A stretch of DNA of 13,932 nt from Actinomycetota bacterium (GTDB taxonomy: Bacteria > Actinomycetota > Actinomycetes > JAKEEW01): positions 1 to 13,932 of the forward strand of contig JBKOZJ010000190.1 of NCBI GenBank assembly GCA_046725875.1, read 5' to 3'. Numbering within the stretch: position 1 is the first letter of the stretch; every line of letters begins with the position of its first letter. The notes beneath the pieces were generated by a model that was given only the letters and a program-made list of their open reading frames with translations, ran no database searches and was not told the DNA's origin. Made by a program: the position numbers and the translations under genes. Shown one piece after another: positions 1-13,632 of this stretch.

Positions 1-1349
1 ACGGCGGTTTCGTGGAGGTGCCGCGAGGTGTCGAGGAGCACGCCACCAGGCGTCGCGAAGATCCCTTGGACCCGGCCTCCGGGGCGGGTCAGGTAGAGGA
101 CGAGCGCCCGCCCGCCCTCCGGCTCGGGTCGGCCCGGCTCCTGCTCTCGGTCCGCTCCGGCCGCGCCTGCCGGCTGCAGGCCTGGGTTGAGTACGGCAAC
201 CAGCCGCGGCGCGCCCGGAATCCACGGAACGCCGACGTAGTCCTCGGGCACGGCGAGCTCGGCCAGTCTCCGACGCAACTCGGCTGCGGTGATGATCGAT
301 CGGTCCTCGGGTCGGTGGGCGAGGCAGTCGGTAAACAGCCGCCGCCAGCCGGGTGACAAGCGGTCGTCGATGGAGTAGCGGGCATGGCAGACCAGGTCGT
401 ACTGCTGCTCTGGCGTGACGCCGGCGGTGATGTGGCGACCGGTAAGCATTCGGTGCATGGTCACGGCAAGTGCCCAGACGTCGCTGGATTGGTCCGGTTT
501 CCAACTTGGCGACGGTGCCATGCTCTGCACGTTGGGCTCTTTGCGGCCGGGCGTCCTCGGTTGCTCCCCCGCTTTGGGACCGCCGGCCGGCAGGCGAACT
601 GCCGGCTCGGTGGTCTGGAAGTCGCCGTTCTGGCACGACTCTGGCGGGAGGTAGGCAAGGGTTCGCGCGGTCAGGGCGGGTGCCGCGATCGCCGGGTCGG
701 ACCTCGTGGAGACACCGAAGTCAGCGATCTTGAAGGCCGGCCCGACCCGCAGTACGTTGCTCGGCTTGATGTCGCCGTGCACTACTCGGCGACTGTGAAT
801 GTGCTCCAGGCCCGCCGCGACCTGTTCGAAGATGCCCGCCCATCCCTGTTCGTCGGGCCGCGTGCGGCGCGCGAAGCCGTACAAATCCTCGGCGGCCAGC
901 TCGAGGACCAGCCCGACGAAGCTCGCCCGGACCTGGCCGGCCTCCCCTGCAGCGGCCGGGCTGCGAGGCGCCTCCCCCTCCTGTGGAGCCTCCGCAGTCT
1001 TGTCAGATGCGCCTGCCCTGTCTGGTTCGCCGTGTTGGTTGGGGAGAGTGAACCGGAAGCTGGTGATCAGGCCGAGGACGTTCTCGTGGCCTTCCACCTC
1101 GGTGATCCTCTCGGCCTCGTCCCGAACCTGGGTTAGCTCCGCCTCGGTTCCTCGGATGCACTTGAGCGCCCGCTCCTCCGGGCCGAACTCGGTCCGCGTC
1201 CGCTCGGTCGCCGGGCGCACGACATAGACGGACGAGTATCCGCCGTCCGCAAGGTGGCGCACGATCTCCCAGGTGGTCGGCTCCTCGCCAACCATGTCCC
1301 CGGTGGCCAGCGGCACGACGCCCACCGGAGCATGCGGTGTCGGCGTCAC
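1..1349 (-). CDS. Hanks-type serine/threonine protein kinase, 3' end truncated by the window edge
   Basis: My manual translation of the minus strand is open from GTG 1349 (AGGAGG at 1363-1358) to position 1. Motifs: Gly-loop LADGGYSSVY, RALK (Lys codon at 1163), HENVLGL, catalytic loop HGDIKPSN (779-756), DFG (722-714), TLAYLPPE, SDVWALAVTMHRMLTG, and subdomain XI CLAHRPEDR. It is absent from the ORF track because there is no stop codon in the window. Confidence 0.93.
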   Translation of the reverse strand, partial: MTPTPHAPVGVVPLATGDMVGEEPTTWEIVRHLADGGYSSVYVVRPATERTRTEFGPEERALKCIRGTEAELTQVRDEAERITEVEGHENVLGLITSFRFTLPNQHGEPDRAGASDKTAEAPQEGEAPRSPAAAGEAGQVRASFVGLVLELAAEDLYGFARRTRPDEQGWAGIFEQVAAGLEHIHSRRVVHGDIKPSNVLRVGPAFKIADFGVSTRSDPAIAAPALTARTLAYLPPESCQNGDFQTTEPAVRLPAGGPKAGEQPRTPGRKEPNVQSMAPSPSWKPDQSSDVWALAVTMHRMLTGRHITAGVTPEQQYDLVCHARYSIDDRLSPGWRRLFTDCLAHRPEDRSIITAAELRRRLAELAVPEDYVGVPWIPGAPRLVAVLNPGLQPAGAAGADREQEPGRPEPEGGRALVLYLTRPGGRVQGIFATPGGVLLDTSRHLHETA

Positions 1350-1684
1350 CGGTGCCCCCTCCTGGTCGCATTCGTACAGCTGGGCCGGCCCATGCTTCAC
1401 AGTCTTGCGCTCCCGGGCGATGTCCGGGATGGCCCCGCCGGAGAGCGTAGCCGCCGACCGGTTGAGGATCACCCCTTCGATGCGACATCGCGTTGGTTCG
1501 TTCCATCCCCGATTGAAACCGGTGCGTCTCGTCGAGCCGCTCCCCGGGGAGGGGTTTCCCCCGTTGTCGGCCGCCGCGTCCACCGCGAGCCTGGCTGCAG
1601 ATCGACGACAACCGGTTAGCCGCAATCCGGTTCCACTTCCGGAGAGCGCCTGCTCCCCGGGGCTCGAGAGGGTGTGAGGATCCG

Positions 1685-2305
1685 ATGACGGAGTGGGTGG
1701 AGGTCTTCCCGGCATACCGGGATGGTTTGGTGCGTTTCGCCGAGACCTATGCGCACCGGCGGTGTGAGGCCGAGGACGTGGTCCAGGATGTGTTCGTCCG
1801 GCTGCTCCGGCCGGGCGGGGCGGCTGTTCCCGAGCGGCCAGGTGCCTATCTACGACGCGCGGTCGCGAATGAGTGTGTCAGCCACTGGCGGCGCCGGCAG
1901 CGTGAACGCCTGACGGCCGACATTCCTGACTGGACTGCCCTGCCTGACCCGGCGAACGCTACCGTCGACCGCCTGGTGGTTCGGGCCGCGGTCGGGAAGT
2001 TGCCGCTGCGGATGCGCCAGGTGGTCGCGCTCAGTTTCCTGGAGGGGATGAGCGACGCGGACGTGGCGCTGGCCCTGGCCATCACGCCGGTGACCGTGCG
2101 TACGACCCGAGCCAGGGCACTGCGGCATCTCGCGAGCCTGCTGGCCGACCACCGCCCATCCAGCCGGGGACCCGCGACCCGAGGCGAGCCGAAGGCCAAG
2201 GTTCGCCAGCTTGAGCCGGCCGTCCTGACCCAGCGCGAGCAGGTCGAGCGGGCGGGAGCCGGCGGCAGCGCGCCAGAGTCAGCCGAGCTCGCCGCGGCCG
2301 CCTGA
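1685..2305 (+). CDS. ECF RNA polymerase sigma-70 factor (SigE-like) with ~53 aa C-terminal extension
   Basis: Sigma2 motif EAEDVVQDVFVRL...AYLRRAVANECVSHWRR; sigma4 motif LPLRMRQVVALSFLEGMSDADVALALAITPVTVRTTRARAL; GAGGA just upstream of ATG 1685. Confidence 0.93.
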   Translation: MTEWVEVFPAYRDGLVRFAETYAHRRCEAEDVVQDVFVRLLRPGGAAVPERPGAYLRRAVANECVSHWRRRQRERLTADIPDWTALPDPANATVDRLVVRAAVGKLPLRMRQVVALSFLEGMSDADVALALAITPVTVRTTRARALRHLASLLADHRPSSRGPATRGEPKAKVRQLEPAVLTQREQVERAGAGGSAPESAELAAAA

Positions 2306-2836
2306 ACCGCCGCGGGGCGTCGGCCGACTCCTTGCGCCGGGCGATGGCTGGGACACCTGACCCACCAGCGGCAACACCCGATAGGGGATCTGCGTCGCCA
2401 AGGCGATGACCGTCGACGTCCGGACGATCCCGTCGAAGCTCACAATGCGGTCGATCACTCGCTGGAGGTCGGCGTTGGAACGCCCGACAATGCGGCAGAT
2501 CAGGTCAGCCGCGCCGGTGATCGTATACGCCTCCAACACCTCTGGAATAGTAGCGAGATGGTCCGCGACAGCGTCGTGGCCGCCCTTCTGCCGGATCTCC
2601 AGGGTCACGAACGCCATCACGGCATAGCCGAGCGCCGCCGGATCGAGATCCGGTCCGAATCCGACGATCACACCGCGGTTCTGCAGCCGGTCCAGGCGGG
2701 CCTGGACCGTCCCGCGCGCCACCCCGAGCCGGCGGGACGCCTCGAGCACGCCGATCCTGGGCTCGGCAGCGAACAGGAGGATGAGCTGCGCGTCGAGCGG
2801 ATCGAGGGTGTGCTCATCCAGCTCGCTCCGGTCCAT
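2279..2836 (-). CDS. Lrp/AsnC family transcriptional regulator (positioned like Streptomyces HpdA, divergent from hppD)
   Basis: N-terminal HTH LDPLDAQLI...EASRRLGVARGTVQARLDRL; RAM domain IPEVLEAYTITGAADLICRIV...GIVRTSTVI; divergent from hppD. Confidence 0.95.
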   Translation of the reverse strand: MDRSELDEHTLDPLDAQLILLFAAEPRIGVLEASRRLGVARGTVQARLDRLQNRGVIVGFGPDLDPAALGYAVMAFVTLEIRQKGGHDAVADHLATIPEVLEAYTITGAADLICRIVGRSNADLQRVIDRIVSFDGIVRTSTVIALATQIPYRVLPLVGQVSQPSPGARSRPTPRGGSGGRGELG

Positions 2837-2856: not shown

Positions 2857-4228
<1,372 letters not shown>

Positions 4229-4232
4229 ATCT

Positions 4233-4305
4233 AACTCCGCGGCCGCTCGGGCCCGTGGATCAACTTTGCGGCGGCCAACTCCGCGGCGGCCCACTCAGCG
4301 CCGGG
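4233..4305. repeat. Short degenerate 15-bp tandem repeat between convergent stop codons
   Basis: AACTTTGCGGCGGCC at 4262-4276 and AACTCCGCGGCGGCC at 4277-4291, a degenerate copy CACTCAGCGCCGG from 4292, and a partial copy AACTCCGCGGC at 4233-4243. Confidence 0.5.
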
Positions 4306-6100
4306 TTCTTGGTCGTGCTTTCTTCCCCTGGGGCTGGACAACCCGAGCCGCCGCCTCCTTGAGGGCGGCGATCGCGTCGTCGTCCGCGGTGAGCGACGGC
4401 CCCGACTCGGCGGCCTCGGGCGACTCGCCTGCGGGCGAATCCGCGCCGACCGGCTCATCCGCGGACTTGGCCGCACCTGCCTCGTCGAGCGTGGTCCCGC
4501 TGTCCGTGGGTTCGGCGTCGGCGTTGTCGGCCCGGACTGGCTCGGCGGCGCCGGTCTTCGTTTCCTCGCCTGCGACGGATCCGCCGGGCACCTCATCGTG
4601 CTCACCAGTGGCCGATTCGTCGGTGCCAGGTTCGCCGTCCGTTGCCGCGGCCTCGTGGTCAGGCGCATCGGACAGCGCGGCGCCCTGTTCCGCGACGGCA
4701 TCCGGCTGCGGCTCGTGGTACTCGTCGTCCTCGCCCATCATCGCGGCCAGTGCGGGCGGGAACGTCTCTTCGCCGGGCGGTTCGGTCTCGTCCTGCTCGC
4801 TCCCTGGAGTCTCGCCCCGGCCTTCCGCCTCGCGTGTCTCGCTGTCCGCTTCCGTCGGCCCGGCTCTCCCAGCCGCCTCGTCCGGTCCCGCCGCTGCTTT
4901 CTCCGCCTCGGCTGTCTTGTCGTCGACTGGCGACGCCGCGGTCGAACCAATGCCGTCCGCGGTTGTGGTCTCGGCTCCCGGCGGCTCGGATTGACTGGGC
5001 AAGATATCCGGCCGCGCACCCTCGACGCTCACCGACGAGTCCATGCTGTCCGCCGCGGCGTCCGGGGCAACCTGCGGTTGGGCCGGAATGGTAAGCCGCG
5101 GACCCGCGCCGTTGGGGGACGCTTCATCCTCGTCCGGGGTGGTGGACACTCCCTCGCTGAGCGCGGACGCCCGTGGCGGAGCTTCCACAGCCAGGCGGGG
5201 CGGCAGGACGGTCGGCAGTCCGGCAAGGTCGGCCGCGAGAATGACCTCCGTTCCGGCGAGCCCCACCGAACAGAACATAGTGACCTGGTCGTCATCGGTC
5301 CGGCCGCCGGCAGCGCCAACGAGCACCTTGCCAAGCTCCACCATGCTCCGCGTGCTGAGGGCATGGGGCTGCGGGTTGCCGTGGACCTGCGCGAGCGAAT
5401 CCGTGACCACCAGGTGCACGCGGTCGAGCAGGTCAAGCGGGATCTCGTGCGCGGACAGCGTCTTTGGTCCGACGCTGGTCACGTGCATCCCGGGCTCGAG
5501 CCATGCGCTGTCGAAGACCGGCGTCGAACTGTTCGTCGCCACGATAACGGCATCACGGTGGCGGAACGCTCTCCGCGCGCTGTCCACCGCGACGGCATCG
5601 ACGAGCAGCTGCTCCCGGCAGCGTGCGGCGAAGCACTCTCGCCAATAGGGGTTGCGGCTGTAGACCTTGATGTGCGACCAGTCGCGGACCGCCGTCGCAG
5701 CCCAGACCTGAGCCCATGCCTGGTGGCCGGTTCCGATCACTCCAAGAGTGTTCGCATCCGGCTTGGCAAGCGCGTCGATGGCGACCGCGCCGATCGCTCC
5801 CGTCCGGCGTCGGCCCAGCTCGGCTCCTAATACGACCGCAGCGAGCCGACGGCTCTCGCTGTCCCAGACCGCGACGACCTGCTCGGAGTCGACATGATCG
5901 TAGATGCGGACGCCATGGACGAGGCCCTCGAGCGCCCCCGCCGTGTAGACGAGCCGGCCGGGCGCGATGTCGTTGTATGCCCGCGCCGGCGCGCTCAGCC
6001 GCCCCTCACCATGTGCGCTAAGGGCGCGGCGGGTGACGGCGATCGCCCGGCTCGCCGTGCACGAGCGAGCGACGTCGGCGTCGGTAAGGATCAAGACCAC
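4295..6100 (-). CDS. Ornithine cyclodeaminase/mu-crystallin family NAD(P)-dependent protein fused to a long acidic low-complexity C-terminal region
   Basis: First ~293 aa carry MVLILTDADV, RRTGAIGAVA, Rossmann motif LGVIGTGHQA, IVATNSSTPV, GMHVTSVG, HEI, VVTD and TMFCSVGLAGTEV. The remaining ~307 aa are rich in A/E/D/P/G/S/T. Confidence 0.9.
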   Translation of the reverse strand: MVLILTDADVARSCTASRAIAVTRRALSAHGEGRLSAPARAYNDIAPGRLVYTAGALEGLVHGVRIYDHVDSEQVVAVWDSESRRLAAVVLGAELGRRRTGAIGAVAIDALAKPDANTLGVIGTGHQAWAQVWAATAVRDWSHIKVYSRNPYWRECFAARCREQLLVDAVAVDSARRAFRHRDAVIVATNSSTPVFDSAWLEPGMHVTSVGPKTLSAHEIPLDLLDRVHLVVTDSLAQVHGNPQPHALSTRSMVELGKVLVGAAGGRTDDDQVTMFCSVGLAGTEVILAADLAGLPTVLPPRLAVEAPPRASALSEGVSTTPDEDEASPNGAGPRLTIPAQPQVAPDAAADSMDSSVSVEGARPDILPSQSEPPGAETTTADGIGSTAASPVDDKTAEAEKAAAGPDEAAGRAGPTEADSETREAEGRGETPGSEQDETEPPGEETFPPALAAMMGEDDEYHEPQPDAVAEQGAALSDAPDHEAAATDGEPGTDESATGEHDEVPGGSVAGEETKTGAAEPVRADNADAEPTDSGTTLDEAGAAKSADEPVGADSPAGESPEAAESGPSLTADDDAIAALKEAAARVVQPQGKKARPRTRR

Positions 6101-6264: not shown

Positions 6265-7578
6265 TCAGGTGGTGGCCGAGGGGCGGACGGTCCCGCTCAG
6301 GGAGCCGAAGCCAAGCCGGGAATCGGCCGGTCCCGACGCCGTGGCCCGGATGGTTACGGTATCCCCGTCCTCCAGGAAGGATCGCCGCGAGCCGTCGGCA
6401 AGGATCACTGGCTCGGCGCCGTTCCAGGAGAGCTCGAGGAAGCTGCCGCATTGGTCGCGGGCCGGCCCAGAGACCGTTCCGGAGGCATAGAGGTCCCCGG
6501 TTCGGACCGAGGCGCCGTTCACTGTCATGTGCGCGAGCTGCTGCGCCGGCGTCCAGTACATCTCGGCGAACGGTGGGCGGGACACGACCGTGTCGTTCCA
6601 CTCCACCTCCAGTAGCAGCTCAAGCCCCCAGGAGCGGTCGTCGGCCAGATAGGGCAGCACCGGCGGCTCCTGCGCGGGTGCGGTCACGCGGGCGTGCTCA
6701 AGTGCGTCCAGTGGCACGACCCACGGTGAGATCGACGTCGCGAATGACTTACCGAGGAACGGGCCGAGCGGCACGTACTCCCATGACTGGATGTCCCGTG
6801 CGCTCCAGTCGTTGACCAGGACCGCCCCGAAGACGTGCTCCCGGAAGGAGGCTACGGGCACCGACTCGCCCAGCTTCGACGGCACACCGATGACGAACCC
6901 AACCTCCGCCTCGATATCGAGGCGAGTGGACGGGCCGAAGGAGGGCTGCGCATTGCGGGCCACCCGTCGCTGGCCACTCGGCCGGACGATCGGCGTCCCC
7001 GACACGACGACCGTGCCGGCCCGCCCGTGGTAGCCGATCGGCAGGTGCCGCCAGTTCGGCGTCAGTGGCTCACTGTCCGGGCGGAACAACCGTCCGACGT
7101 TCTCTGCATGGTGTCTCGACGAGTAGAAGTCGACGTAGTCCCCGATCTCGACCGGCAGGTGCAACGTCACCTCGGACTGTGGCACCAGATAGGGCGAGAC
7201 CGCATCGCGATACACCGGAGCGGAGAGCAGCTCCGACAGGCGTTCCCGGACCGCGCTCCAGGCCGGCCGACCTCGCGACATGAACTGATTGAGGGACGGC
7301 ATGGCGAAGTCGTTGGAGTACGGAACATGGACGCCGCTTGCGGCAAGCGCGGCGACATCAAGGACGCACTCCCCGATGGCGACACCGACTCGCGGTCGTC
7401 CGTTCCGATCGCGCGAGTTCGCGGCGAAGACGCCGTAGGGCAGGTTGGAAAGTGGAAAGTCCGACCCCTCCGGCACGCCGATCCAGGTCGAGGGTGCGTC
7501 CGCTTGCGAAGGCCGGGTGAATCTTAGGGGGTTATCCCGCTGAGGCGCTCGACGTGACGTCTCGCGGGACGGCGTCAT
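6265..7578 (-). CDS. fahA: Fumarylacetoacetase
   Basis: Motifs SDFPLSNLPYGVF, IGDYVDFYSSRHHAENVG, PNWRHLPIGYHGRAGTVVVSG, LDIEAE, NDWSARDIQSWEYVPLGPFLGKSF, SGTVSG, GSFLEL, FLEDGD. Its start overlaps the upstream stop (ATGA, 7575-7578). Confidence 0.97.
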   Translation of the reverse strand: MTPSRETSRRAPQRDNPLRFTRPSQADAPSTWIGVPEGSDFPLSNLPYGVFAANSRDRNGRPRVGVAIGECVLDVAALAASGVHVPYSNDFAMPSLNQFMSRGRPAWSAVRERLSELLSAPVYRDAVSPYLVPQSEVTLHLPVEIGDYVDFYSSRHHAENVGRLFRPDSEPLTPNWRHLPIGYHGRAGTVVVSGTPIVRPSGQRRVARNAQPSFGPSTRLDIEAEVGFVIGVPSKLGESVPVASFREHVFGAVLVNDWSARDIQSWEYVPLGPFLGKSFATSISPWVVPLDALEHARVTAPAQEPPVLPYLADDRSWGLELLLEVEWNDTVVSRPPFAEMYWTPAQQLAHMTVNGASVRTGDLYASGTVSGPARDQCGSFLELSWNGAEPVILADGSRRSFLEDGDTVTIRATASGPADSRLGFGSLSGTVRPSATT

Positions 7579-8462
7579 GTGACATCCTGCGCGACCACCG
7601 GTGGCGGCTCATATCTCTCGATCAGCCCGAGCGCTGCGAGGTCGTCGACCGGCTCGTCTACGCTGCACGTGCCGAATCCCGTGAAACTGCTCCGGATGGC
7701 GGCGGCTGCGCTCGCGTCCACGCCGAGCGTGGTGGCGACCAGCGCTGCTGTCTCCTTGCTCGCGAGAATCTCGATGAGATCGTCGACCGAGCCGCCTTCC
7801 GTCGCCGCGTGGGTGGCGAGGAGGATGTTGAGGAAGCCGTGATGCTCGAAGCCGCTGTGTTGGTCGCCGTGGCGTACGGCCTGATGCAGCCCGGCGGTGC
7901 ATTTGAACGGAGCGCCCTCGGTCACGCTTGCCCGGACGAACTCGGCCACCTCGATCTCGCTCGGGAAGGCATCGGCAACCAGCCCACCCGTGCGAAGCTT
8001 GACTCCGTAACCACGCGCGGCGACCAGCGAGAGTGCGTCTCGCCAACCGGCAATCCGGGGGAGCTCGACGAACGCCGCGATGTCATCGGTCAGTCGGGAA
8101 AATGCGCGCACCGCCTCGTGTGCTGCGGCAGCGGGGTCGCCATCGACACCGATGGGGACCTCGATCGCGGTAAGCCTCAGACGGGAGTCGTCCGCGCTGG
8201 CACTGACCGCGTCAGGCAGTCGCTCCAGACCGGTATCAAGGATCAGGCTGACCGCGAAGCGGTCATCGTCCACGAGCTCAGCCTGCAGCTCGTCGAGCCG
8301 CGAGGCCGGGCATAGAAACCGGCCGACCAGATCCGCGTAGTCTCCGGTGCGATGATGGCGATGCTCTTTGACCGCGGTTGACATCGGCATGTTGCCCGGG
8401 GGGAAAAGCGATGCATCATCAACTAGGGCAGCCAAAAGCGGGCTCACTGCTCCGGTTGACAT
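7575..8462 (-). CDS. Uncharacterised soluble alpha/beta protein coupled to fahA
   Basis: Enzyme-like motifs LVDDASLFPPG, FVELP, KLRTGG, FKCTAGLHQA, HHGFLNIL, GFGTCSVDEP. Start placed at ATG 8462 because the track start (8522) would translate through the operator. Its stop overlaps the fahA start. Confidence 0.85.
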   Translation of the reverse strand: MSTGAVSPLLAALVDDASLFPPGNMPMSTAVKEHRHHRTGDYADLVGRFLCPASRLDELQAELVDDDRFAVSLILDTGLERLPDAVSASADDSRLRLTAIEVPIGVDGDPAAAAHEAVRAFSRLTDDIAAFVELPRIAGWRDALSLVAARGYGVKLRTGGLVADAFPSEIEVAEFVRASVTEGAPFKCTAGLHQAVRHGDQHSGFEHHGFLNILLATHAATEGGSVDDLIEILASKETAALVATTLGVDASAAAAIRSSFTGFGTCSVDEPVDDLAALGLIERYEPPPVVAQDVT

Positions 8463-8481
8463 GTCCGTGACCTTACCGCAA

Positions 8482-8519
8482 TGTTCTTCTATAGGACAAT
8501 GCTGTCCGATAATCGGACA
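8482..8519. promoter_or_regulatory. Putative IclR-family operator, perfect 17-bp palindrome plus a degenerate tandem copy
   Basis: TGTCCGAT-A-ATCGGACA at 8503-8519 and TGTTCTTC-T-ATAGGACA at 8482-8498, 21 bp apart. From memory it resembles PobR/PcaR/PcaU-type IclR operators. It lies between the divergent hypothetical-fahA and hmgA units. Confidence 0.75.
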
Positions 8520-8561
8520 CACCTGCTAGACGGTCGAACGGGGCCAGGAAGGCATCGAACC

Positions 8562-9764
8562 ATGCCGTACTACCGGGCGGTGGGGCAGATCCCGCACAAG
8601 CGACACACGCAGTTCCGTAGGCCAGACGGCGGGCTCTATGCAGAGGAGCTGATGGGGATCGAGGGGTTCTCCAGCGAGTCCGCGCTCCTCTATCACGAGG
8701 GTCTGCCGACGGCGATCGTCGACGTTGAGGAGTGGACGATGCCGGCCGACACCTCGACGCCGAACCATCCGCTCAAGCCGAGACACTTTACGACCCACAA
8801 GCTCGACACCGGCGGGGCTGACGCCGTGAACGGGCGGCAGCTGTTGCTCGCCAATGGAGATGTCCGGGTTTCGTACGCGGGGGTCGACTCACCGTCGGCC
8901 CTCTATCGAAATGCGATCGGGGACGAGTGTGTTTATGTGGAGTCCGGCCGAGCGACGGTCGAGACGGTCTTTGGCGCGCTCACGGTAGCCAAGGGTGACT
9001 ACGTGGTGCTGCCGACCTCGACGACGCACAGGTGGATTCCGGACGAATCGGCGGATGGCGGACCGCTCCGGCTCTTCGTCGTGGAGGCGACCGGACATAT
9101 CGCGCCGCCGGGCCGCTATCTCACCAGACGCGGTCAGTTCAACGAGTTCTCGCCCTACTGCGAACGTGACCTGCGTGGGCCGACCGAGCCGCTGGTCGTG
9201 CCGGGCGAGGACGTCGAGGTTTTCGTACGCCATCGAAGCGGCGGCACGCGCTTCGTTTACGCACGCCACCCGTTCGACGTGGTCGGTTGGGATGGCTGCC
9301 TCTACCCGTACGCCTTCAACATCGAGGACTTCGAGCCGATTACCGGGCGAGTCCACCAGCCGCCGCCGGTGCATCAGACTTTCGCCGGCCCGAACTTCGT
9401 CATCTGCTCGTTCGTTCCGCGGAAGTTCGATTACCACCCGCTGTCGATTCCGGCTCCGTATAACCATGCGAACGTCGACTCCGACGAGGTCATCTTCTAT
9501 GTGGGCGGCGATTTCATGTCACGCAAAGGCGCAGGTATCGAGCTCGGGTCCATCTCGCTTCATCCGAACGGCTTCACGCACGGCCCGCAGCCAGGATCGG
9601 TGGAGGCGTCGATCGGCAAGGAGGCGACCGACGAGTGGGCGGTCATGGTTGACACATTCCGCCCGCTCGAGCTGGGCGACGCGGCGCTGGCCTGCGAAGA
9701 CACGGCGTACGCATGGACCTGGGCCGGTCGGCGCAACGACGGCCCGGATAGCACCACGGGGTGA
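8562..9764 (+). CDS. hmgA: Homogentisate 1,2-dioxygenase
   Basis: Motifs MPYYRAVGQIPHKRHTQF, EELMGIEGFSSESALLYH, HPFDVVGWDG, HQPPPVHQTF, CSFVPR, PYNHANVDSDEV, HGPQPG, VMVDTFRPL. AGGAAGG precedes ATG 8562, which I prefer to the track start at 8481. Confidence 0.96.
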   Translation: MPYYRAVGQIPHKRHTQFRRPDGGLYAEELMGIEGFSSESALLYHEGLPTAIVDVEEWTMPADTSTPNHPLKPRHFTTHKLDTGGADAVNGRQLLLANGDVRVSYAGVDSPSALYRNAIGDECVYVESGRATVETVFGALTVAKGDYVVLPTSTTHRWIPDESADGGPLRLFVVEATGHIAPPGRYLTRRGQFNEFSPYCERDLRGPTEPLVVPGEDVEVFVRHRSGGTRFVYARHPFDVVGWDGCLYPYAFNIEDFEPITGRVHQPPPVHQTFAGPNFVICSFVPRKFDYHPLSIPAPYNHANVDSDEVIFYVGGDFMSRKGAGIELGSISLHPNGFTHGPQPGSVEASIGKEATDEWAVMVDTFRPLELGDAALACEDTAYAWTWAGRRNDGPDSTTG

Positions 9765-9851: not shown

Positions 9852-11540
9852 GTGTCACGTACGCGCTTAGCCCTGATCGGAATCATCGGAGTCGCTCTCG
9901 CCAGTCTCACCGGAGCTGTTGTCTTAACATCTGCGTCGGCCACGCCCGCTCCGCGCAGGATCGTCGCCGGCTGGTTGCCGTACTGGAGCATGGACAGCTC
10001 GCTCGCCACCGCCACCTCGAACGCCGACCTGTGGAGCGACGCATCTCCGTTCTGGTACGAGGCGACTGGCGCGAGCACGATCACCAACCACCCCGGCGCC
10101 GGAGACCCTGCCGTCCGCGATGCGCTGCGGGACCAGGGCATCAAAGTCCTGCCGACGGTTACCGAGACCCTCAACGCACCACAGATGGCCGCCCTGCTCG
10201 GCGACGCAAGTCAGCGCAGCGCCCACGTGACCACGCTGGTCAACCTCGTTACCACGAACGGCTACGACGGCATCGACCTCGACTACGAGCGAATGAACTG
10301 GGGCACGAGCGACCCGGCCGTGAAGACCGCCGTACGGACCGGCTTCGTCACCTTCGTTAGGGAGCTCGCAAGCGCGCTCGACACATACGGGAAGATGCTG
10401 GCCGTAACCGTCGGAGCGCGGACGAGCTCGACCACGGCGAGCTGGGCCGTCTTCGACTACAAGGGGATCGGCGCGGTTGCGGACCGGGTCCGCATCATGA
10501 CCTACGACTACCACGTCAGCACTCCAGGCGCGATCGCACCGCTGTGGTGGGTCGAGAAAGTCCTTGCGTACGCGGTCACCGAGATCCCGGCCGGTCGCAT
10601 CCAAGTCGGCGCGCCACTGTACGGCCGCGACTGGGTCTGTGCGGACTCCACATGCGAGACCAGGGCGTCTGGCACGAGCGTTAAGACCTTGAGTTACCGG
10701 CAGGCCGATGCACTGCGCGTCAATGAGGAGGCCGCCCGGCTCTGGTCGGCCACGGATGCCGCGCCGTACTTCACCTACCTGGACGATCTCGCCAGGACGC
10801 ACGTCGTTTGGTACAACGACGTCGATTCGACGAAGGCGAAGATGACGCTCGTCGGGGAGTACTATCTCGCCGGCATCGCCTTCTGGGCGGTCGGCTACGA
10901 GGACGCCCGCCAGTGGACGCCGCTGCGCGACTATGCCGTCAGCATCGCAAAGAAGTCGCGGTCGGTCTCCATCGGGAGCTTGCCGAGCAGCATTACCTAC
11001 GGAACCAAGCTGACGGTCACCGGGACCGTCAGGGATATGTCCGGGACCGTCCTGGCGAGCCAGAAGGTGGTGCTGCAGCGGCGCAGCACTACCGGCTCGA
11101 CATGGAGCAACGTTGCCACTGCCTGGACATCATCGACGGGCAGTGTCTCGTTCAGTTACACGCCGTCGACCAACAGCGTCTTCCGCCTCTATGCACCGTC
11201 GAACTGGACCTTCTACTCGGCGACGAGCAGCGAGAAGACCACATTGGTCAAGTGGAAGGTCACCGCCGCAGCTAGTGACACCACGCCGGCGAGGGGTCAG
11301 ACAATCAGGATCAGCGGGAAGGTCTCGCCGATCCGGTCGGGCACCACGGTGGAGCGGCAGAAGCTGGCCAACGGCACCTGGGTTCGCATGGCCACGACCA
11401 CCGTGAAGTCCGATGGCAGCTACTCCTTCTCCGTGCTGATGCCGTCCACCTCAACCACCCTTACCTATCGGATCAAGGTTCCGGGCACGTCGCTGAACGC
11501 CACGGCGTATTCATCCTCAATCAAGATCACGGTCGGTTGA
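9852..11540 (+). CDS. Secreted glycoside hydrolase family 18 protein (chitinase-like/YaaH-SleL-like) with two C-terminal beta-rich Ig-like repeats
   Basis: Signal peptide MSRTRLALIGIIGVALASLTGAVVLTSASA; catalytic motif DGIDLDYE (10266-10289); IMTYDYH, PGAIAP, GAPLYGRDW, VVWY, GIAFWAVG; Thr/Ser-rich beta domains after about 10950; GGAGG at 9836-9840. Confidence 0.92.
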   Translation: MSRTRLALIGIIGVALASLTGAVVLTSASATPAPRRIVAGWLPYWSMDSSLATATSNADLWSDASPFWYEATGASTITNHPGAGDPAVRDALRDQGIKVLPTVTETLNAPQMAALLGDASQRSAHVTTLVNLVTTNGYDGIDLDYERMNWGTSDPAVKTAVRTGFVTFVRELASALDTYGKMLAVTVGARTSSTTASWAVFDYKGIGAVADRVRIMTYDYHVSTPGAIAPLWWVEKVLAYAVTEIPAGRIQVGAPLYGRDWVCADSTCETRASGTSVKTLSYRQADALRVNEEAARLWSATDAAPYFTYLDDLARTHVVWYNDVDSTKAKMTLVGEYYLAGIAFWAVGYEDARQWTPLRDYAVSIAKKSRSVSIGSLPSSITYGTKLTVTGTVRDMSGTVLASQKVVLQRRSTTGSTWSNVATAWTSSTGSVSFSYTPSTNSVFRLYAPSNWTFYSATSSEKTTLVKWKVTAAASDTTPARGQTIRISGKVSPIRSGTTVERQKLANGTWVRMATTTVKSDGSYSFSVLMPSTSTTLTYRIKVPGTSLNATAYSSSIKITVG

Positions 11541-11751: not shown

Positions 11752-11982
11752 CATCTGCCGATGACCGGCCCCGCGCGGCCAGGCGCCCGTGGAACCGGGC
11801 CAACCCAAAGGGACTACGTACACGTGGAGCTAGGTCCGGCGCATCGTGGCGGATCGAGCCCGAGAAGCGCGGCGACAGTTCGATCAGATCATGGCGACCG
11901 GATCGCCTGTGGACGAAATCCCGGCTGGAGCGGCTGAGGCACGGCAGGATGGGCCCGCGACATCCGCCGCCGGGGAGTGTGT

Positions 11983-13632
11983 ATGGGACCTTGGGCCGTC
12001 CGACTCGCTGTGTTGCTCGGCACGGCGGCGACCGGTCTTGTCGGGTACGCCGGAGCGGCCACCGCCGCTGCCGATGTGCCGCGGCATCCGGTTGGCAACG
12101 AGACGATCAACCAGTCGGTCAACCTCCGGATCCAGCCCGAGCAGATCCAAATCGACTATGTGCTCGACGTCGCCGAGTTGCCCGCATTCTCGCTATGCGA
12201 GCAGCAGTTCGGGAGCGCCGGCTGTCACCCAGATCCGAGCCAGGCCGAACGGATGGCCCGCGAGGAATGCGACTACGACGCCGGGTTGATGCGGCTTGCG
12301 CTGCCGGCTGGCAGGCGCCCGACGGTCCGGGTGGCCGGCTCGGAGGTGGTCTTCCTTGACGGTAGCGGCGGCCTGTCCACCTTCCGCCTCACCTGCGCGT
12401 TCGTCGCGGACCTCGAAATCAGCGCCGAGACCGAGCTGACCTTTTCCAACGACGCCTACTTCGACACGATCGGCATTCGAGAGGTCACCGCGGTCGGCGA
12501 CGGCACGACCCTGGTGCGGTCTAGTGTTGGCAGCAGGTCGCCGACCCACCGGCTGACCGCCTTCCCGATGGAGGTGCTGCGCAACCCGCCTGACGTGCGT
12601 GAGGCGGACCTCGTCGTGCGCCCCGGTGGTCCGCGTCTCGGGGGTTCGGCGGCGCCGGGAGGCAATGGCGACACCGCCACGTCGTCCGGCAGCGACCGCG
12701 AAGCCCCAGTGGGAAGCTCGCCGTGGTCGATCGACAAGCTTTCTCGCACGTTCACCGGGTTCGTTACGCATCGGGATCTGACGGTCGCGTTTGTTATCGC
12801 GGCCCTCCTCGCGTCGGTGGGACTCGGTGCTGCCCACGCGGTCGCACCGGGTCACGGCAAGACGATGATGGCGGCTTACCTTGTCGCGGAGCGAGGCAGC
12901 GGACGGCTTGCCGTCCTCGTCGGGCTCACTGTGACCGCGACCCATACCGCTGGCGTCCTGATATTGGGCGTGGTGCTGTCCGCGACGGCCGCATTGGCCC
13001 CCTCGCGCGTCTATCCATGGCTGGGGATTGCGAGCGGCCTGCTTGTCGTCGCGGTCGGCGTCGGGCTGGTCCGCCGGGCCTGGCCAGTGCATGGGCGTGC
13101 GCATGGCGACGAGGGCCACGAGCACACGCACGGTCATGGGAACGAGCCCGGTCACAAGTTCTGGCTGGACCACGAACACCCGCGGCGTCCTGGGCCGCGT
13201 CTTCGGAGCGTCGTCGGCATGGGCATAGCGGGCGGGCTGGCACCCAGCCCGTCGGCCGTCGTCGTCCTGCTCGGCGGGATCGCGATCGGCCGGCCGTGGT
13301 TCGGTGTGCTGCTGGTCGTTGCCTACGGCCTAGGTATGGCGGTCATCCTGGCCGGGATCGGGTTCGCCCTCGTGCGGCTGCGGGACACGGCCGCCCGCCG
13401 CGGCAGGTCACTCCGCGTCCCCGGCATCGCTCGTGCACTGCCCCGGCTGACCTCAATCGCTGTAGTCGTGGTTGGCGTCGTCCTCCTCGCCCGCTCGGCG
13501 GTCGTCGTGCTTGCCTACCCGCCAGGACGCGATCCGCAGGGTCTAGCCCTGCCTCCGCGGAACAACGTTGGACCGTCGCGGCGAAAATCGGCGTCAGAAC
13601 GAAGATCCTGGACCGTCAGCTTGACGGAATGA
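11983..13632 (+). CDS. Nickel/cobalt transporter (RcnA/NiCoT-like membrane domain) with N-terminal extracytoplasmic domain
   Basis: Signal peptide, HPVGNETINQ motif, HAVAPGHGKT signature, TATHTAGV, His-rich loop HGRAHGDEGHEHTHGHGNEPGH, GLAPSPSA, and about six hydrophobic segments; GGGGAG (11972-11977) precedes ATG 11983. Confidence 0.9.
   Translation: MGPWAVRLAVLLGTAATGLVGYAGAATAAADVPRHPVGNETINQSVNLRIQPEQIQIDYVLDVAELPAFSLCEQQFGSAGCHPDPSQAERMAREECDYDAGLMRLALPAGRRPTVRVAGSEVVFLDGSGGLSTFRLTCAFVADLEISAETELTFSNDAYFDTIGIREVTAVGDGTTLVRSSVGSRSPTHRLTAFPMEVLRNPPDVREADLVVRPGGPRLGGSAAPGGNGDTATSSGSDREAPVGSSPWSIDKLSRTFTGFVTHRDLTVAFVIAALLASVGLGAAHAVAPGHGKTMMAAYLVAERGSGRLAVLVGLTVTATHTAGVLILGVVLSATAALAPSRVYPWLGIASGLLVVAVGVGLVRRAWPVHGRAHGDEGHEHTHGHGNEPGHKFWLDHEHPRRPGPRLRSVVGMGIAGGLAPSPSAVVVLLGGIAIGRPWFGVLLVVAYGLGMAVILAGIGFALVRLRDTAARRGRSLRVPGIARALPRLTSIAVVVVGVVLLARSAVVVLAYPPGRDPQGLALPPRNNVGPSRRKSASERRSWTVSLTE

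Follow-up and report, generated by a model that had tools for sequence, protein, structure and literature searches.

Which enzyme converts maleylacetoacetate to fumarylacetoacetate in Gram-positive bacteria? The homogentisate route of tyrosine and phenylalanine degradation is a central pathway, and to our knowledge annotation leaves the isomerase step without a gene in essentially all Actinomycetota, as it does in many Bacillota. A glutathione-independent maleylacetoacetate isomerase activity was reportedly described from Gram-positive bacteria in 1985. Our literature search returned no gene for such an enzyme and no name for the protein family considered below. For Bacillus genomes, two reports state that the isomerase gene cannot be identified (PMC4457819, PMC6193087). 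The stretch of 13,932 nucleotides analyzed here, called the window throughout, raises this question for an actinobacterial locus. The original prediction singled out an uncharacterized gene next to fahA, here termed X, as a candidate for the absent isomerase.

The locus and its uncharacterized gene

The window was said to encode HppD, HmgA and FahA, and this is borne out. The most secure assignment is that of fahA (6265..7578, minus strand), which encodes a fumarylacetoacetase of the long, two-domain type (FAA_hydrolase_N and FAA_hydrolase) and scores 479.9 bits against TIGR01266, where the cutoff is 375.3. The gene for the upstream pathway step, hppD (2993..4228, plus strand; 4-hydroxyphenylpyruvate dioxygenase), is recognized by its domains (Glyoxalase and Glyoxalase_5 HPPD N-terminal domains), and its product is 53% identical to that of the annotated Priestia hppD. 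Divergent from it is a gene for an Lrp/AsnC regulator (2279..2836, minus strand; AsnC_trans_reg and HTH_AsnC), a pairing also seen in Priestia and Tsukamurella. The hmgA gene (8562..9764, plus strand, in a frame open from 8481) encodes a divergent type of homogentisate 1,2-dioxygenase with weak matches to HgmA_N/C, Cupin and TIGR01015, the last reaching only 34.6 bits where the cutoff is 510. Its identification comes from its 49% identity to the annotated homogentisate 1,2-dioxygenase of Priestia; across the annotated or Pfam-supported HmgA proteins of Priestia and Kovacikia, identity is 49-54%. As also predicted, the window contains neither a GST-zeta MaiA nor a DinB-like isomerase: none of the 40 ORFs scanned matched GST or DinB/MDMPI models, and the window is gene-packed, with no space for a further gene of 200 amino acids.

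X occupies 7575..8462 on the minus strand and encodes a protein of 295 amino acids within a frame open over 7575..8522. The start given in the original prediction, the ATG at 8462, is correct: a 100%-identical database protein of 295 amino acids begins at the same MST... position, and this start position is common to X and 37 aligned homologues. X is a genuine and widely conserved gene. At E<=1e-3 the family comprises 5765 representative clusters, which, with two exceptions only, carry the source names "hypothetical" or "uncharacterized". A search of the atlas with X gave unnamed actinobacterial clusters only.

The profile scan of X gave no match to any Pfam or NCBIfam model. No GST_N or GST_C match was found in Pfam/NCBIfam for X and 38 homologues, even at E<=10, and X had no Pfam match to MDMPI_N or DinB; as a control, MDMPI_N was recognized by that library in a neighboring plasmid gene with an E-value of 4.9e-15. 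Bacillota members of the family carry two UniRef names, "HpcH/HpaI aldolase/citrate lyase domain-containing" and "Glutamate--cysteine ligase", that lack Pfam support even at E<=1 and were set aside. CbiZ was likewise dismissed as a chance match: it was found in 7 of 38 members in a lenient Pfam scan, below the gathering score, with a best E-value of 0.0024.

Gene neighborhood across phyla

Synteny in Actinomycetota was inspected within 8 kb on either side of X in the best 80 of 579 confirmed genome matches. In 69 of the 80 loci, fahA lies downstream of X on the same strand, at a distance of at most 150 bp in 67; two of the 11 misses had no sequence left to assess. The count for hmgA upstream of X is also 69 of 80, with one of its 11 misses not assessable. 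Both genes adjoin X in 64 loci and at least one of them does so in 74, and more than ten families are represented among the linked loci. The MaiA and DinB-type enzymes are not routine companions of X: among 171 neighbor ORFs/cluster representatives from the 80 loci there was no GST match and one MST/DinB match, an MST/DinB_2 gene convergent to X in one locus.

Linkage of X to fahA extends to plasmids and to other phyla. Ten plasmid loci were examined from 24 records found, those of Priestia megaterium and a cyanobacterium among them, and in all ten, which span three phyla, fahA is directly downstream of X. Three of the ten also carry an MDMPI_N gene at a distance of 1-4 kb from the X-fahA pair; these plasmids form one related Streptomyces group in which hmgA is not nearby. 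In Bacillota and Cyanobacteriota, where X is only 26-29% identical, the linkage to fahA persists, and the Priestia and cyanobacterial pairs belong to clusters that otherwise cover the whole route from tyrosine to acetoacetate. In Priestia megaterium (Bacillota), an Lrp gene precedes the cluster hppD-X-fahA-hisC-hmgA-permease. The cyanobacterium Kovacikia carries genes for an aminotransferase and an AMP-ligase together with hmgA and hppD, divergent from X-fahA; none of 11 Kovacikia ORFs matched GST, and the cluster has a second unassigned ORF, of 307 amino acids. Gene order is hmgA-X-fahA-CoA transferase A-B in Streptomyces sp. Alt3, hmgA-X-fahA flanked by IS elements in Pseudonocardia, and Lrp followed by hppD-hmgA-X-fahA in Tsukamurella. 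In several homogentisate clusters that are complete in all other respects, X alone lacks an assignment. Across lineages it stays beside fahA and hmgA and co-oriented with them, which makes it a member of the homogentisate-pathway gene cluster. The original prediction would have suffered had homologues been mostly unlinked to hmgA and fahA or regularly accompanied by a known isomerase, and the genome and plasmid loci show the opposite. The computational checks suggested there all turned out in its favor.

The few loci that depart from this pattern bear on whether the role of X lies outside tyrosine catabolism, the gene simply being carried along with fahA. In six of the 80 genome loci neither fahA nor hmgA occurs within 8 kb of X, and genes for an amino-acid permease, a GDSL lipase or an S41 peptidase adjoin it instead; four of the six belong to one Kitasatospora/Streptomyces tateyamensis clade. 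Chance hitch-hiking is nevertheless insufficient to explain a linkage that is kept in three phyla, at such low identity and in several gene orders, and we regard this explanation as very improbable.

The ATGA overlap with fahA that was claimed for X is present at 7575..7578 (minus strand), where the TGA stop of X and the fahA start codon interlock in a 4-bp overlap, so that the two genes are translationally coupled. Equivalent 4-bp overlaps occur in Priestia, Kovacikia, Tsukamurella and Pseudonocardia. The two proteins are also joined in one natural fusion, P0258 (683 amino acids), in which X makes up residues 1-278 and FahA residues 302-663. The AF2 model of this fusion, built from a mixed alignment, is poor (pLDDT 69.2, pTM 0.58). 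A second apparent fused form, P0270 (695 amino acids, E 1e-9), was rejected; it has no Pfam domain and, by eye, looks of low complexity and frame-shift-like, with an HmgA-like beginning.

Predicted fold and conserved residues

A barrel fold had been guessed for X, and the AF2 model, with its eight beta/alpha units (pLDDT 94.7, pTM 0.91), likewise predicts a (beta/alpha)8 barrel. X is without a close solved relative, the best TM-score in Foldseek being 0.53. The top structures, 5c5y_B and 9fd7_A, have a TMq of 0.53 and a TMt of 0.61-0.63, and the best fold matches are 9-14% identical to X with an rmsd of 5-6 Å or more. These matches are aldolases and other barrels of C-C/C-H chemistry, namely DERA, FBP aldolase and HMG-CoA lyase, and among the leading matches all those of familiar fold are TIM barrels. 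No sequence-profile match of X to DeoC/DERA was found. We know of no TIM-barrel C=C cis-trans isomerase, and the fold therefore offers no precedent for the proposed reaction of X.

Several other assignments were considered and rejected. Mandelate oxidase, an FMN-dependent alpha-hydroxy-acid oxidase, gave the lowest E-value (5.2e-4) with a TMq of only 0.41 and an rmsd of 10.7 Å, and X has no FMN_dh Pfam match. Two PDB sequence-profile matches to photosystem I-N (E 0.41-1.1) were attributed to chance. The likeness of FKCTAGLH to the KKCGH loop of isocitrate lyase was discounted as its Cys is not conserved, and neither isocitrate lyase nor PEP mutase is among the fold matches.

All six motifs quoted in the original prediction (DD..FPPG, VE, KLRTGG, FKCTAGLH, HHGF and FGTCS..EP) are found in X, and they are conserved in sets of 38 and 262 homologues, with the exception of the FKCTAGLH Cys, which is present in 190 of 262. 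As catalytic candidates, the motif residues fared unevenly: C266 (in FGTCS), K155, K187 and H193 are conserved across phyla, whereas neither the FKCTAGLH Cys nor the second DD aspartate is. The residues D15, E101, E133, K155, R157, K187, T189, H193, R197, H208, N212, R257 and C266 are invariant in 262 sequences from the actinobacterial side and 119 from Bacillota, and C266 is the single universal cysteine of the family. In the AF2 model, the invariant residues map to the ends of strands 1 and 4-8 and to the subsequent loops, with K155 on predicted strand 6, K187 on predicted strand 7 and C266 directly after predicted strand 8. The polar residues conserved across phyla thus occupy what is predicted to be the catalytic face, at the C-terminal ends of the barrel strands.

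This arrangement also bears on whether X merely assists FahA without catalysis of its own, as a partner, scaffold or maturation factor, which its translational coupling to fahA and the one X-FahA fusion might suggest. FahA homologues in other organisms work alone, and a canonical enzyme barrel whose predicted catalytic face keeps about 13 invariant polar residues across phyla would be out of place in such a partner. We therefore give this idea very little credence.

Proposed function and mechanism

X is the best candidate for the step of tyrosine breakdown that lacks a known gene in Gram-positive bacteria, because it adjoins the genes of the neighboring steps in three phyla. We infer that X is probably a glutathione-independent maleylacetoacetate cis-trans isomerase of new fold. 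It would convert 4-maleylacetoacetate, the product of HmgA, to 4-fumarylacetoacetate, the substrate of FahA.

An alternative that we consider unlikely, though well short of negligible, is that X acts on homogentisate intermediates in some other way. It could catalyze keto-enol tautomerization of maleyl- or fumarylacetoacetate, could hydrolyze, decarboxylate or cleave a side product such as a species derived from succinyl- or maleylacetoacetate, or could detoxify these reactive electrophiles; isomerization would then be spontaneous, thiol-catalyzed or carried out by an unlinked DinB-type enzyme. Synteny gives membership of a pathway and not a reaction, the best fold matches are barrels of the aldolase/lyase type (DERA at a TM-score of 0.53, FBP aldolase and HMG-CoA lyase), and the conserved D/E/H set might bind a metal in the way that is typical of lyases. 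MDMPI_N genes also lie near X-fahA in one plasmid lineage, and the B. cereus group, whose operon is described as hppD-fahA-hmgA without X (PMC4457819, PMC6193087), copes without it, so X is not universally needed. On the other hand, no further step is missing in Priestia, Tsukamurella and Streptomyces sp. Alt3, where all other genes of the cluster are assigned. The tight coupling of X to the long FahA in particular, through 4-bp overlaps and one fusion, suggests that X passes FahA its substrate, and DinB-type neighbors are sporadic, occurring in one of 80 genome loci and in three of ten plasmid loci, these three being of a single lineage.

Returning to X as an isomerase, we tentatively propose it as a candidate for the first (beta/alpha)8-barrel C=C cis-trans isomerase, one that would be cofactor-independent; Cys266, activated by Lys155, Lys187 and His193, may take the place of glutathione, mycothiol or bacillithiol, although the odds are somewhat against this more specific proposal. 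In the most likely mechanism, the thiolate of C266 would add across C2=C3 of the enone, with the 4-oxo/beta-diketone polarized either by Lys155 and Lys187 (as an iminium or through charge) or by a divalent metal on D15/E101/E133/H193. The C2-C3 bond would then rotate and the thiol depart, while Arg157, Arg197 and Arg257 could bind the two carboxylates. Such an addition-rotation-elimination sequence would be the one followed with glutathione in MaiA or with Cys in maleate isomerase, the nucleophile being supplied here by the protein. The presence of X in three phyla with different thiols argues for its independence from any one low-molecular-weight thiol. Bacillota and a cyanobacterium, which also carry X, are not known to make mycothiol. 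Since X is also present in a cyanobacterium, an organism that makes glutathione, a lack of glutathione can be only part of the story.

Comparison with known systems is instructive. GST-zeta MaiA/HmgC/GSTZ1 (EC 5.2.1.2) shares with X the proposed reaction and an operon position between or beside hmgA and fahA (PMC8449657, PMC6193087). MaiA is a GST of thioredoxin-like fold with glutathione as the nucleophile, whereas X is a predicted TIM barrel without a GST domain, and its nucleophile would therefore be protein-borne or another cofactor. Mycothiol-dependent maleylpyruvate isomerase (MDMPI) is the actinobacterial, glutathione-free solution for the gentisate pathway, where a maleyl-ketoacid undergoes cis-trans isomerization; it is a four-helix-bundle DinB protein that uses a metal and mycothiol, in contrast to X, which matches neither MDMPI_N nor DinB. 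Maleate cis-trans isomerase, of the Asp/Glu racemase superfamily, is cofactor-free, and its active-site Cys adds covalently to the double bond. It may serve as a mechanistic model for C266, but differs from X in fold and substrate and has a cysteine pair rather than one universal cysteine. Class I aldolase TIM barrels such as DERA, which has a Schiff-base lysine and a second lysine on strands 6 and 7, resemble X in their barrel fold and are its best structural matches; the invariant lysines of X, placed by prediction on strands 6 and 7, may correspond to these two. DERA differs from X in its low identity (9-14%), the lack of a profile match and its operon context.

If X is the isomerase, tyrosine/phenylalanine catabolism would be closed in Actinomycetota, many Bacillota and some Cyanobacteriota, and X would be the long-missing gene for the glutathione-independent activity of Gram-positive bacteria from the 1980s. 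Metabolic reconstructions and gap-filling would be repaired for a large share of soil bacteria, and a large family with thousands of members, now almost wholly "hypothetical protein", would gain a name. The few C=C cis-trans isomerases would be joined by one with a new fold and, probably, a mechanism of its own. Engineers of aromatic catabolism or of pyomelanin control in Streptomyces and Rhodococcus hosts would also have a thiol-free isomerase to work with.

The region between X and hmgA

X and hmgA were predicted to share an operator region. The shared divergent region stands, while the start of hmgA at 8481 does not: the gene most likely begins at the ATG at 8562, because residue 28 of the longer ORF is where the N-terminus of the annotated Priestia HmgA aligns. 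With that start, the divergent intergenic region would span 8463..8561 (about 99 bp). It holds a perfect palindrome, GTCCGATAATCGGAC, at 8504-8518. When three mismatches were allowed, at least one palindrome of this type was found in 144 of 200 shuffles; a single such site in 13.9 kb, taken alone, is not unusual by chance. Among 80 related loci, however, 12 have this palindrome type no more than 200 bp upstream of X, and GTCCGATAATCGGAC is a likely operator for some regulator.

Gene X and its surroundings

Our analysis showed that X lies in a single open frame at 7575-8522 of the reverse strand, in which an ATG at 8462 gives a protein of 295 amino acids (7575-8462). Because a 295-aa database entry that is 100% identical begins at the same MST... 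position, as do 37 homologues in an alignment, the coordinates of the original prediction are right. The TGA of X and the ATG of fahA share the ATGA at 7575-7578, the overlap from which coupling had been proposed. By its sequence, the downstream gene (6265-7578, reverse strand) is a bona fide fumarylacetoacetase, scoring 479.9 bits against TIGR01266 (cutoff 375.3). Upstream of X and divergent from it is a gene for a cupin protein (frame 8481-9764, forward strand) with weak matches to HgmA_N, HgmA_C and TIGR01015 (34.6 bits; cutoff 510). This protein shares 49-54% identity with homogentisate dioxygenases of Priestia and Kovacikia that are annotated as such or supported by Pfam, which identifies it as an HmgA of a divergent type. 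Since the N-terminus of the annotated Priestia HmgA falls at residue 28 of the longer frame when the two are aligned, hmgA likely starts at the ATG at 8562 rather than at 8481, which would leave a 99-bp divergent intergenic region (8463-8561).

The hppD gene (2993-4228, forward strand) adjoins a gene for an Lrp/AsnC regulator. A scan of 40 window ORFs gave no GST and no DinB/MDMPI match, as the original prediction had held. Genes for a Ser/Thr protein kinase (3-1715, reverse strand), an ECF sigma factor (1685-2305, forward), a GH18 chitinase-like protein (9852-11540, forward) and a NicO-type nickel/cobalt transporter (11977-13632, forward) flank the cluster and appear unrelated to X. A 601-aa ORF (4295-6100, reverse strand) starts 164 bp downstream of fahA; its residues 3-292 resemble ornithine cyclodeaminase/mu-crystallin, its C-terminal 300 residues match no Pfam family, and it is kept over its whole length (58%) in L001, one of the related genome loci.

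The X family

X matched nothing in Pfam-A or NCBIfam, and 38 family members scanned at E≤10 gave sub-threshold noise only. The family is large: a word-indexed search from X, with 8000 candidates scored, recovered at least 1210 proteins at E≤1e-3, and an exhaustive profile search recovered 5765 representative clusters at E≤1e-3, 2672 of which passed E≤1e-30. When the Priestia homologue was the query, at least 7997 of 8000 scored candidates passed E≤1e-3, a large Bacillota branch that includes Priestia, Paenibacillus, Brevibacillus, Aneurinibacillus and Peribacillus, among others. Source names were all "hypothetical" or "uncharacterized" except for two automatic UniRef names, which were set aside for want of Pfam support. 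One representative from the profile search (P0258, 683 aa) joins X (residues 1-278) cleanly and in frame, through a short linker, to a complete FahA (302-663); as it is a single cluster and may be an artefact of sequencing or of a stop codon, we count it as no more than supportive.

Genomic context of X

A scan of species-representative genomes matched 599 stretches, of which 579 encode X relatives; the best 80 were inspected over up to 8 kb on each side, with FahA, HmgA and HppD located by tblastn using the window's own proteins. This set is redundant, with about 22 Kribbella and 15 Pseudonocardiaceae loci. Among these best 80 of 579, fahA is downstream of X on the same strand in 69, at ≤150 bp in 67 and at 526 bp (L065) and 655 bp (L064) in the others; the 11 loci without fahA include two (L006, L019) that cannot be judged, as their sequence ends ≤141 bp from X. 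The hmgA gene is upstream in 69 of the same 80 (62 divergent, 7 co-directional), and the 11 without it include L001, with just 93 bp of upstream sequence. Both partners occur in 64 of these best 80 loci, fahA only in 5, hmgA only in 5 and neither in 6, so that the proposed tie to hmgA and fahA holds within 8 kb. Linked loci come from Kribbellaceae, Nocardioidaceae, Pseudonocardiaceae, Nocardiaceae, Streptomycetaceae, Thermomonosporaceae, Geodermatophilaceae, Catenulisporaceae, Micromonosporaceae, Streptosporangiaceae, Jiangellales and Acidimicrobiales. A quick maximum-likelihood tree places four of the six unlinked loci, all from Kitasatospora/Streptomyces tateyamensis, in a single clade that sits within the linked loci, which points to lineage-specific relocation rather than a deep paralogue. 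Neighbours of unlinked X genes encode an amino-acid permease, GDSL lipases and an S41 peptidase. Two records are probably mislabelled or contaminated: X from L061, labelled "Rhodococcus rhodnii NRRL B-16535", is nearly the same as the Actinosynnema protein (branch length 0.007), and L073, titled Rhodococcus sp., carries a cyanobacterial family label on the tree.

A tblastn search of PLSDB returned 24 records, of which 10 were inspected; fahA is directly downstream of X in all 10, and hmgA is in view in 7. In Priestia megaterium (Bacillota; X 26% identical) an Lrp gene precedes hppD-X-fahA-hisC (aminotransferase)-hmgA-amino-acid permease, with a 4-bp overlap of X and fahA. The same 4-bp overlap is found in Kovacikia minuta (Cyanobacteriota, L082; X 29% identical), where X-fahA is divergent from a one-strand run of genes for an aminotransferase, an acetoacetyl-CoA-synthetase-like ligase, a 307-aa ORF, hmgA and hppD. 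That second unassigned ORF (L082 3895-4818, reverse strand), flanked by the AMP-ligase gene and hmgA, was not among the recurrent neighbours seen at other loci. Streptomyces sp. Alt3 has hmgA-X-fahA followed by genes for CoA transferases A and B, and Tsukamurella has Lrp beside hppD-hmgA-X-fahA. On a Pseudonocardia plasmid (L086 1786-8813) hmgA-X-fahA stands alone between IS5 and IS1380 transposases and has the look of a mobile homogentisate module of three genes. In each of the three phyla seen, X seems to keep company with HmgA of the divergent type. In several plasmid clusters the whole enzyme set leading from tyrosine or homogentisate to fumarate and acetoacetyl-CoA is encoded, bar the isomerase, and X is the sole gene without an assignment in them.

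Known isomerases near X

The 80 loci gave 905 crude ORF calls, which were clustered, and 171 ORFs were scanned for domains: representatives of recurrent clusters, neighbours in the exceptional loci, and 114 more clusters in the range of 150-330 aa. The calls relied on a GC3 filter and greedy overlap removal, by which genes can be missed. Known isomerases are not routine near X: GST_N/GST_C and MDMPI_N had no match among the 171 ORFs, and an MST/DinB_2 gene, convergent to X, was seen once (L071). Genuine counter-evidence comes from one related group of Streptomyces linear plasmids (L083, L084, L089), which carry X-fahA-iclR with hmgA not nearby. An MDMPI_N gene (E 4.9e-15) lies 1-4 kb from X-fahA in these three (L083 3346-4002, L084 295-951, L089 1-141), sharing the strand in two of them and lying on the opposite one in the third. 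A tblastn search with the plasmid protein found it in no other locus examined. The counter-evidence stays within a single lineage. DinB/MDMPI paralogues are very numerous in Streptomyces. In both L083 and L084, the gene immediately before X encodes a conserved 203-aa protein with no Pfam match.

Predicted fold and conserved residues

The original prediction had guessed a barrel, and the AlphaFold2 model built with a 38-row alignment (pLDDT 94.7, pTM 0.91) is a (beta/alpha)8 barrel of eight strand-helix units. Foldseek against the PDB gave 8 matches at E≤1e-3 with identities of 9-17% throughout; the best TM-scores (0.53, query-normalised) were to deoxyribose-phosphate aldolases, and mandelate oxidase came first by E-value, yet with a TM-score of 0.41 and an rmsd of about 10.7 Å. 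Since these are generic barrel matches and a PDB sequence-profile search found nothing real, the modelled fold is familiar and has no identifiable superfamily-level relative among solved structures.

Residues were counted in an actinobacterial-side set (n=262) and a Bacillota set (n=119). Conserved in all 119 Bacillota sequences are D15 (255/262 on the actinobacterial side), E133 (261), K155 (260), R157 (261), K187 (256), T189 (258), H193 (258), N212 (260), R257 (262) and C266 (256); E101 (246/262, Asp in 12; 109/119, Asp in 10), R197 (244/262; 118/119) and H208 (248/262; 111/119, Tyr in 8) follow. Of the motifs suggested as catalytic, DD and FKCTAGLH stand in part: D15, K187 and H193 are conserved, and D16 (Tyr in 119/119 Bacillota) and C188 (Cys in 190/262; Phe in 118/119 Bacillota) are not. 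C51 is not conserved either, being Cys in 200/262 and aliphatic in Bacillota. On the model's secondary structure the conserved set maps to strands 1, 4, 5, 6, 7 and 8, at their C-terminal ends and in the loops after them, and these residues would cluster in space. Such strand ends and loops are the usual catalytic face of TIM barrels.

A candidate maleylacetoacetate isomerase

X is a real, widespread and unnamed barrel protein, and the model suggests that it is an enzyme. Its place in the homogentisate pathway is nearly certain. The hmgA-X-fahA order, the coupling to fahA and the hole in the pathway together suggest that X would convert maleylacetoacetate to fumarylacetoacetate, and we regard it as the best available candidate for a glutathione-independent maleylacetoacetate isomerase, an assignment that we hold to be somewhat more likely than not. 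If true, X would be a case in which a known enzyme has been replaced by a non-homologous protein of a new fold, and it would close a recognised gap in the pathway.

Glutathione-independent maleylacetoacetate isomerase activity was reportedly described in Gram-positive bacteria in the Journal of Bacteriology in 1985. Our full-text literature search found no published paper naming the X family or any Gram-positive gene for this enzyme. In the accessible text of the respective studies, the gene was not identifiable in B. anthracis (PMC4457819) or B. thuringiensis (PMC6193087), whose operon is hppD-fahA-hmgA, without X; the former refers to Crawford (1976) for a route through a maleylacetoacetate hydrolase that some Bacillus use. 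For B. thuringiensis, an operon fragment of about 3.9 kb is given, in which the promoter takes up 394 bp, hmgA 1173 bp and the terminator 232 bp (PMC6193087), sizes implying a B. cereus-group hydrolase gene of about 1 kb, shorter than the X-paired fahA. This fits the speculation that X accompanies a fumaryl-specific long FahA. The accessible part of one paper includes the isomerase step in its pathway legend. In Rhodococcus globerulus grown on phenylalanine and 2-hydroxyphenylacetate, HmgA and HmgB were detected and, in the part of the study available, no isomerase was reported (PMC11889516).

Isomerisation would need a passing loss of C2=C3 double-bond character. In the GST-zeta isomerase this is brought about by glutathione, and in maleate isomerase an active-site cysteine plays a similar role. 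The polar equipment of X comprises one universal cysteine (C266), two invariant lysines, a histidine, a D/E/E cluster and three arginines; the lysines are on strands 6 and 7, positions that class I aldolases use. Based on this set, we propose that the arginines would suit a dicarboxylate and that the C266 thiol could add to an enone activated by a lysine (as iminium or by charge) or by a metal on the acidic cluster, with rotation and then elimination to follow. The phyla that carry the family, Actinomycetota, Bacillota and Cyanobacteriota, between them use mycothiol, bacillithiol and glutathione. This distribution favours an X that works without dependence on any particular low-molecular-weight thiol, and X may instead be aided by a generic thiol such as cysteine, or by a flavin.

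Putative regulation

The operator region that X and hmgA were predicted to share would be the 99-bp intergenic stretch, which holds a perfect 7-1-7 palindrome, GTCCGATAATCGGAC, at 8504-8518 that is likely an operator. An IclR gene after fahA, absent from this window, occurs in 17 of the 80 loci. Of the 80 related loci, 12 from several families have a palindrome of the same type (..CGATWATCG..) no further than 200 bp ahead of X.
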